This document shows, in pieces, positions 45,297 to 47,262 of a DNA stretch of 64,000 bases (within the stretch, counting starts at the first letter, position 1; every line of letters starts with the position of its first letter). Origin of the DNA: Escherichia coli (GTDB lineage: Bacteria; Pseudomonadota; Gammaproteobacteria; Enterobacterales; Enterobacteriaceae); assembly GCF_050920415.1 (NCBI RefSeq), contig NZ_CP169309.1. The stretch is one strand, 5' to 3'. The notes beneath the pieces are model-generated. The model was not told the origin of the DNA and made no database searches. It saw only the letters and a list, made by a program, of their open reading frames with translations. A program made the position numbers and the translations under genes.

Positions 45297-46343
45297 ATGC
45301 TGAGCAGAGAGGACTTTTACATGATAAAGCAAATGCGCCAGCAAGGTGCGTATATTGTTGATATTGCCACTCAGGTTGGTTGCTCTGAGCGGACTGTCAG
45401 ACGGTACCTGAAATACCCGGAACCTCCGGCCAGAAAAACACGCCACAAAATGGCCAAACTCAAGCCGTTCATGGACTATATCGACATGCGTCTGGCTGAG
45501 AATGTCTGGAACGGCGAGGTCATCCTGGCGGAAATCAAAGCGATGGGTTATACCGGTGGCCGTTCCATGTTGCGTTACTACATCCAGCCCAAACGTAAGA
45601 TGCGGCCATCGAAGAAAACGGTTCGCTTCGAAACTCAGCCCGGTTACCAGCTACAGCATGACTGGGGAGAAGTTGAGGCTGAGGTTGCCGGGCAACGATG
45701 CAGGGTTAACTTCGCGGTTAATACGCTGGGGTTCTCACGTCGCTTCCATGTCTTCGCGGCACCAAAGCAGGATGCTGAACATACCTATGAGTCACTGGTC
45801 CGCGCCTTTCGCTACTTCGGCGGCAGCGTGAAAACCGTGCTGGTCGATAACCAGAAAGCCGCAGTGCTGAAAAATAACAACGGGAAGGTGGTGTTCAACT
45901 CCGGGTTCCTGCTGCTGGCCGATCACTATGGCTTCCTGCCACGGGCCTGCCGTCCACGAAGGGCCAGAACCAAAGGTAAGGTGGAACGGATGGTGAAATA
46001 CCTCAAGGAAAACTTCTTCGTCCGGTACCGCCGGTTCGACAGCTTCGCCCATGTTAATCAGCTACTGGAGCAGTGGATGGCTGACGTTGCCGACAGGCGG
46101 GAACTTCGCCAGTTCAGGCAGACACCGGAACAGCGCTTCACGCAGGAACAGGTGCATCTGCAGGCGCTGCCAGGTACGGACTTCGATACCAGCTACTTCG
46201 ATATCCGTCATGTCTCCTGGGATGGCTATATCGAGGTTGGCGGGAACCGTTACAGCGTGCCGGAAAGCCTGTGTGGCCAGCCGGTATCAATACGGATCTC
46301 GCTGGATGATGAACTGCGATTTACAGTAATGAGCAACAGGTAG
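45297..46343 (+). pseudogene. istA: IS21-family transposase IstA, frameshifted near 3' end (348 aa as read; about 390 aa if the -1 shift around 46313-46343 is repaired, then ending at 46468)
   Basis: HTH N-terminus and integrase-core-like body; alternative frame open from 46313 to TGA at 46466-46468, which overlaps the istB ATG. Confidence 0.8.
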
Positions 46344-46467
46344 CATCGCACCGTCTCTGTTCGGCTGTATACGGCTGGCAGACCGTGCCGGAGCATCACG
46401 CCCCACTCTGGCAGCAGGTCAGTCAGGTGGAACACAGGCCGTTGAGTGCCTATGAGGAGCTGTTGTG

Positions 46468-47262
46468 ATGCATGAACTGGAGACACTGCTGGGTCGTCTT
46501 AAAATGGAACATCTGGGCTACCACGTTGAAAGCCTGCTGGAGCAGGCGGCCAAAAAAGAACTGAACTACCGCGAGTTCCTGTGCATGGCGTTGCAGCAGG
46601 AATGGAACGGGAGGCATCAGCGCAGTATGGAGTCCCGGCTGAAACAGGCCCGCTTCCCGTGGGTCAAAACGCTGGAGCAGTTCGACTTCGGCTTCCAGCC
46701 AGGTATCGATCGTAAGGTCGTCCGTGAGCTGGCCGGGCTGGCGTTCGTGGAGCGTAGCGAGAACGTGATCCTGCTGGGTCCGCCTGGTGTGGGTAAAACG
46801 CACCTGGCAGTCGCTCTCGGGGTAAAAGCGGCGGACGCTGGTCATCGGGTGCTGTTCATGCCACTGGATAAGCTGATCGCCACACTCATGAAGGCAAAAC
46901 AGGAAAACCGGCTGGAAAAACAGCTACAGCAGCTTGGTTATGCCCGGGTACTGATACTGGATGAGATAGGCTATCTGCCGATGACCCGCGAGGAAGCCAG
47001 TCTGTTCTTCCGGTTGCTGAACCGTCGATATGAAAAAGCGAGCATCGTGCTGACGTCAAATAAAGGGTTCGCCGACTGGGGAGAGATGTTCGGCGATAAC
47101 GTGCTGGCAACGGCAATCCTGGATCGACTGCTACACCACTCAACCACACTGAACATCAAAGGAGAAAGCTACCGGTTAAAGGAAAAACGCAAAGCGGGAG
47201 TGCTGGCAAAAAACGCCACGCCAATCAGTGATGATGAAATGGCGGCAAGCGGACAACATTAA
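46468..47262 (+). CDS. istB: IS21-family helper ATPase IstB, 264 aa
   Basis: Walker [12 protein letters not shown] and Walker B ...[11 protein letters not shown]... Confidence 0.85.

Follow-up and report, generated by a model that had tools for sequence, protein, structure and literature searches.

An apparent one-base deletion in the istA gene of an otherwise complete ISEc62 element inserted in yibH of Escherichia coli

The 64-kb stretch of Escherichia coli DNA analysed here (contig NZ_CP169309.1 of assembly GCF_050920415.1, hereafter the window) most probably carries a one-base deletion in the istA gene of an otherwise complete ISEc62 element that is inserted in yibH. What is missing is one of the two adjacent G residues in codon 341, and we put the probability of this reading at roughly 0.9. 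Judged from its sequence, the element is a copy of ISEc62, belongs to the IS21 family by descent and is, as sequenced, a pseudogene copy. The missing G may be a genuine mutation or an error left over in the assembly of a multi-copy repeat; the two are about equally likely, the balance tipping slightly to an artefact. In either case there is nothing new: the insertion sequence is known, and a one-base frameshift or an erroneous base call in it is routine.

As stated in a preliminary description of this DNA, istA (45297-46343, plus strand) reads 348 codons to a stop at 46341-46343, and both the open reading frame and the underlying sequence agree with all of these coordinates. Residues 1-341 are native and residues 342-348 (FTVMSNR) are out of frame, so that the C-terminal end of the open reading frame reads ...SLDDELRFTVMSNR (...ELRFTVMSNR) and is followed by the TAG codon. 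The -1 frame of istA, which we translated from 46271, contains two stop codons at 46307-46312 (TGATGA) and is open from 46313 to a TGA at 46466-46468. Within it lies the displaced 3' part of istA (46319-46468, plus strand), coding for native residues 342-390 (IYSNEQQVASHRLC...SAYEELL), which apart from the deletion matches the intact orthologues exactly in the alignment. Its TGA overlaps the istB start codon as TGATG at 46466-46470, so that the final A of the stop codon also opens the ATG (46468-46470). The preliminary description had taken this overlap to be the usual arrangement, and the translation and the intact relatives agree with it: the latter are annotated with the same overlap, istA at 601-1773 and istB at 1773-2567 (L002, L004). 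The istB gene itself (46468-47262, plus strand, 264 codons) is intact and codes for the helper AAA+ ATPase, as identified by Pfam (PF01695 IstB_IS21, E = 2e-88) and NCBIfam (NF038214, 297 bits against a cut-off of 200), and it shows no nucleotide difference to the intact copy L011. A Shine-Dalgarno-like GAGGAG motif is located 8 nt upstream of its ATG.

The frameshift had been ascribed to a single-nucleotide deletion somewhere within 46313-46343, and alignment with 13 other ISEc62 copies placed it precisely. For these alignments, four RefSeq copies were used first and ten more were then found via the intact protein. Where the window has a single G at 46318, all 13 other copies carry GG (GCGAT and GCGGAT, respectively). 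The CTGCGGAT of the other copies is CTGCGAT in the window, and in its wider setting every other copy has CTGCGGAT(C/T)TAC where the window has CTGCGATTTAC. The site of the frameshift is the codon at 46317-46319 (plus strand), which is CGA in the window and CGG A in the intact copies, one G of the doublet having been lost. Codon 341 is changed from CGG to CGA and still codes for arginine; the frame shifts after Arg341 and a stop codon follows 7 codons later. The product of the deletion allele keeps native residues 1-341, gains 7 aberrant residues and lacks exactly 49 native ones (342-390), where the preliminary description had estimated a loss of roughly 50. When the missing G is restored, istA becomes a continuous frame of 390 codons with a TGA overlapping istB. 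The early stop as the normal end of IstA was also considered and ruled out, as the intact protein has 390 amino acids and IstA of IS5376 can be aligned to the intact ISEc62 IstA as far as residue 388 of the latter. Relatives ending at the same position had been named beforehand as a finding that would speak against a deletion; the annotated IstA of the intact relatives is 390 amino acids long.

A ribosome could in principle overcome the lesion by programmed -1 frameshifting, or an RNA polymerase by transcriptional slippage, in which case full-length IstA would still be made. A -1 slip directly after the CGA codon at 46317-46319 would indeed restore the native sequence R-I-Y-S-N-E. However, the overlap at 46313-46343 contains neither a slippery heptamer of the X XXY YYZ type nor a homopolymer run, and IstA is encoded in one continuous frame in all 13 relatives, so that the family has evolved no signal for recoding here. 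The IstA proteins of the IS21 family are not known to use frameshifting. We therefore give hardly any credence to such a bypass; programmed -1 frameshifting as in the transposases of the IS3 family and IS1 was rejected, since the slippery heptamer is missing and the two-frame arrangement is not conserved.

Apart from this one base, the element is complete. It spans 45196-47319 (plus strand) and is 2124 bp long, or 2125 bp once the lost G is added back, and 45196 and 47319 are the limits of homology to ISEc62 copies located in unrelated contexts. The left terminus, from 45196, reads TGTCAGCGCCAA... and the right terminus, to 47319, ...TTGGCGTTGACA; these form terminal inverted repeats of the 5'-TG...CA-3' type, with matches between the two at 11 of 12 positions, and a further, internal inverted pair is found near the ends at 45224-45245 and 47271-47292. 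Megablast against 5,426 complete E. coli genomes returned hundreds of copies, annotated as IS21-like ISEc62 family transposase or helper ATPase IstB, and the window element is 98-99.9% identical to copies annotated as 'IS21-like element ISEc62 family'. Within the window, there is a single ISEc62 copy. Copies annotated as ISEc62 by NCBI PGAP, such as those of strain E24377A (NC_009801.1, 1011392-1013514) and plasmid pDEC15A-1, are 98.4-99.9% identical to the window copy over the whole element and share with it the istA-istB gene order, the TGATG overlap and the ends. The copy in the window differs from them by the G missing from istA codon 341, by its length of 2124 instead of 2125 bp and by an IstA of 348 instead of 390 amino acids.

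The element interrupts yibH, a gene of the HlyD family, and divides it into a 5' fragment (44617-45195, plus strand) and a 3' fragment (47320-47881, plus strand), as assigned from the annotation of the orthologous locus and from matches of the empty site. It is flanked by a 4-bp target-site duplication, CGAC, with the left copy at 45192-45195 and the right copy at 47320-47323, which was recognized in the sequence and by reconstruction of the empty site. To this end, the insertion sequence and one CGAC were excised in silico, which yielded 400 bp of contiguous yibH with a full-length match in 5,399 genomes. The match of the empty site to uninterrupted yibH together with the CGAC duplication indicates a simple insertion of ISEc62 in yibH. 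The yibH allele of the window is an uncommon one: among 5,400 complete E. coli genomes, about 5,370 carry an allele with 90-95% identity to it and about 25 one with 95-99% identity.

Two other copies of the element are located at the identical site in yibH, one in E. coli strain MFDS1022581 (CP169399.1; L001/L015) and one in AEZI02000021.1 (GCA_000194175.2; L011), and their insertion site, target duplication and flanks are those of the window. Both have a 390-codon istA. It follows that the insertion was ancestrally intact and that only the window sequence lacks the G. In the AEZI02000021.1 copy istB is likewise intact, whereas the MFDS1022581 copy, with its intact istA, is one A short in an A6 run of istB. 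The istB gene of MFDS1022581 (L001, 4273-5066) is annotated as frameshifted by RefSeq, the run with the missing A corresponding to 46547-46552 of the window. A C to T substitution at 46321, which is synonymous and turns a GATC (Dam site) into GATT, is common to the window and MFDS1022581, while the 12 other copies have GGATC; it is the only substitution that marks the ISEc62 copy of this lineage.

The comparison with MFDS1022581 also bears on the origin of the missing G. The window and MFDS1022581 are collinear over 64 kb and 99.986% identical, the differences amounting to seven scattered substitutions plus two indels. Multi-copy IS elements are regions in which the polishing of long-read assemblies with short reads fails, and residual single-base indels gather there. 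Both indels between the two sequences lie inside the 2.1-kb insertion sequence, one in each genome, and none is found in the other 62 kb, which is exactly the clustering that incomplete polishing of repeats would give. At a divergence of about 1e-4, two real indels together with no substitution in 2.1 kb would be unexpected. Furthermore, the indel of MFDS1022581 lies in an A6 homopolymer and is of the classic consensus-error type, and the deletion in the window is 3 nt away from the 46321 C to T substitution, both of them hitting a GGATC (Dam) motif, a clustering that appears suspicious. All of this would fit an assembly or consensus error, behind which stands a real element with an intact 390-codon istA. 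On the other hand, a GG doublet is an atypical site for homopolymer errors, a neighbouring GATC at 46296-46299, about 25 nt further upstream, is unchanged, and IS copies do decay by such frameshifts, many ISEc62 istA and istB genes being annotated as pseudogenes in RefSeq. The ISEc62 copy of strain A20, for instance, has an internal stop and is annotated as a pseudogene there. Weighing these points, we regard an error of the assembly as a toss-up.

The deletion allele was also sought in other collections. With a 100-bp query, it was found at none of 287 places in the 5,426 complete E. coli genomes and was absent among the best PLSDB plasmid matches listed; the matches listed from both sources all span 101 subject bases per 100 query bases. 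An exact 39-mer of the deletion allele was found neither in the GTDB representative genomes nor in the JGI metagenomes, and the exact 348-aa product was not found among about 15 billion proteins, where 74 contigs carry the intact protein. The absence of both the allele and its product from all collections searched is what an assembly error would lead to, but the source genome seemingly lies outside these collections, so that this absence is uninformative as to mutation or error.

Were both frameshifts real, two lineages only about one substitution per 10 kb apart would each have lost the function of this IS copy in an independent event, which we consider unlikely, with just a small chance of being true. 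Neutral decay would in that case be a poorer explanation than either selection against an active ISEc62 copy at this position or a hotspot of mutation in the GGATC Dam motif. Both of the indels that separate these two near-identical genomes are located in a repeat element, which calls for caution in counting pseudogenes: where a transposase is called frameshifted in a finished assembly, imperfect polishing may often be the cause.

As sequenced, the window lacks the continuous frame for an IstA of about 390 amino acids that an autonomous element has, since the frame stops after 348 codons. The 348-aa protein is still recognized as an IS21 family transposase by NCBIfam (NF033546, transpos_IS21; 280.9 bits against a cut-off of 160). 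The Pfam rve domain, that is, the DDE core, matches residues 113-222 (E = 6e-14), and the match to Pfam Mu-transpos_C_2 ends abruptly at residue 341. The truncated protein is thus predicted to keep the HTH and DDE domains and to lose the end of the beta-barrel, including a conserved tyrosine, Tyr343, plus the whole C-terminal tail. The intact ISEc62 IstA aligns to IstA of IS5376 (PDB 8b4h) with E = 2e-82 and without gaps over residues 304-361, Tyr343 being conserved.

IstA of IS5376 from Geobacillus stearothermophilus (PDB 8b4h, 8q4d) is a distant homologue, which is related over residues 1-388, has the same architecture of HTH, DDE, beta-barrel and tail, and shares Tyr343. In this protein, residues 300-355 make up the beta-barrel and the C-terminal 45 residues a flexible tail; the beta-barrel stabilises the tetramer, and mutation of Gln369 in the tail lowers integration (PMC10122671). 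The beta-barrel also docks into IstB, with Tyr343 contacting IstB, and both a Y343A/R345A variant and a truncation to residues 1-287 show less stimulation of the IstB ATPase and less integration; what the extreme C-terminal tail does is given as undefined (PMC11208146). The published truncation ends at residue 287, while that of the window ends at residue 341. Arg345 of IS5376 IstA is an Asn in ISEc62, so that the contact with IstB is only partly conserved. Gln369 aligns with His368 of ISEc62 IstA in a low-confidence region of the alignment; the mapping of this residue onto ISEc62 was for this reason dropped and our claim is limited to the removal of the tail.

Due to the loss of the beta-barrel end with Tyr343 and of the tail, the truncated IstA is probably not activatable by IstB for integration. 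The preliminary description had suggested that this copy may be transposition-defective, and this appears to be a reasonable proposal, as the lost segment holds the conserved Tyr343 and the Y343A/R345A variant is impaired in IS5376 (PMC11208146). On these grounds of homology, we propose that the ISEc62 copy of the window probably cannot move by means of its own IstA and is not autonomously mobile. It might, however, be mobilisable in trans by intact copies elsewhere in the genome, which is possible because its ends and istB are intact. A real deletion would leave a non-autonomous insertion sequence that moves only with IstA provided by other copies. The premature istA stop lies 125 nt upstream of istB and would abolish the translational coupling of the two genes, but the GAGGAG motif could allow independent initiation at istB.

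One might speculate that the truncated IstA is a selected functional variant, acting as a regulator or a dominant-negative inhibitor that restrains other ISEc62 copies. The retention of the HTH and DDE domains would suit such a role, as would the independent frameshift, in istB, in the same IS copy of the sister genome. That lesion affects a different gene, though, the truncated allele is known from one sequence only with no sign of spread or conservation, and neutral decay or an artefact needs fewer assumptions; a selected truncation is therefore very unlikely. We hence keep to a one-base deletion in istA, be it real or an error, as the description of this copy, and for annotation purposes istA is a frameshifted pseudogene and yibH is disrupted by ISEc62.

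The surroundings of the insertion contain other repeated and mobile sequences. Just downstream of yibH, at about 47960-48460 and about 50300-50570, there are remnants of ISAs1-family transposases, which are frameshifted and partial in the near-identical genome; their positions were set by collinearity with CP169399.1 (145298-145794 and 147637-147909, RefSeq annotation). Enclosed between these remnants are genes coding for an N-acetylmuramidase-family protein and for an EF-hand protein. Between yibH and yibF lies an island resembling those for type VI secretion system (T6SS) effectors, which contains two vgrG (tssI) paralogues (53917-55972 and 58254-60306) with about 83% identity over about 2.05 kb and a pair of 543-bp repeats (49748-50289 and 52103-52645) with 96% identity. 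Within a large gene for a YadA-like adhesin, internal tandem-like repeats at about 35167-36207 are 83-89% identical and offset by about 250-500 bp.
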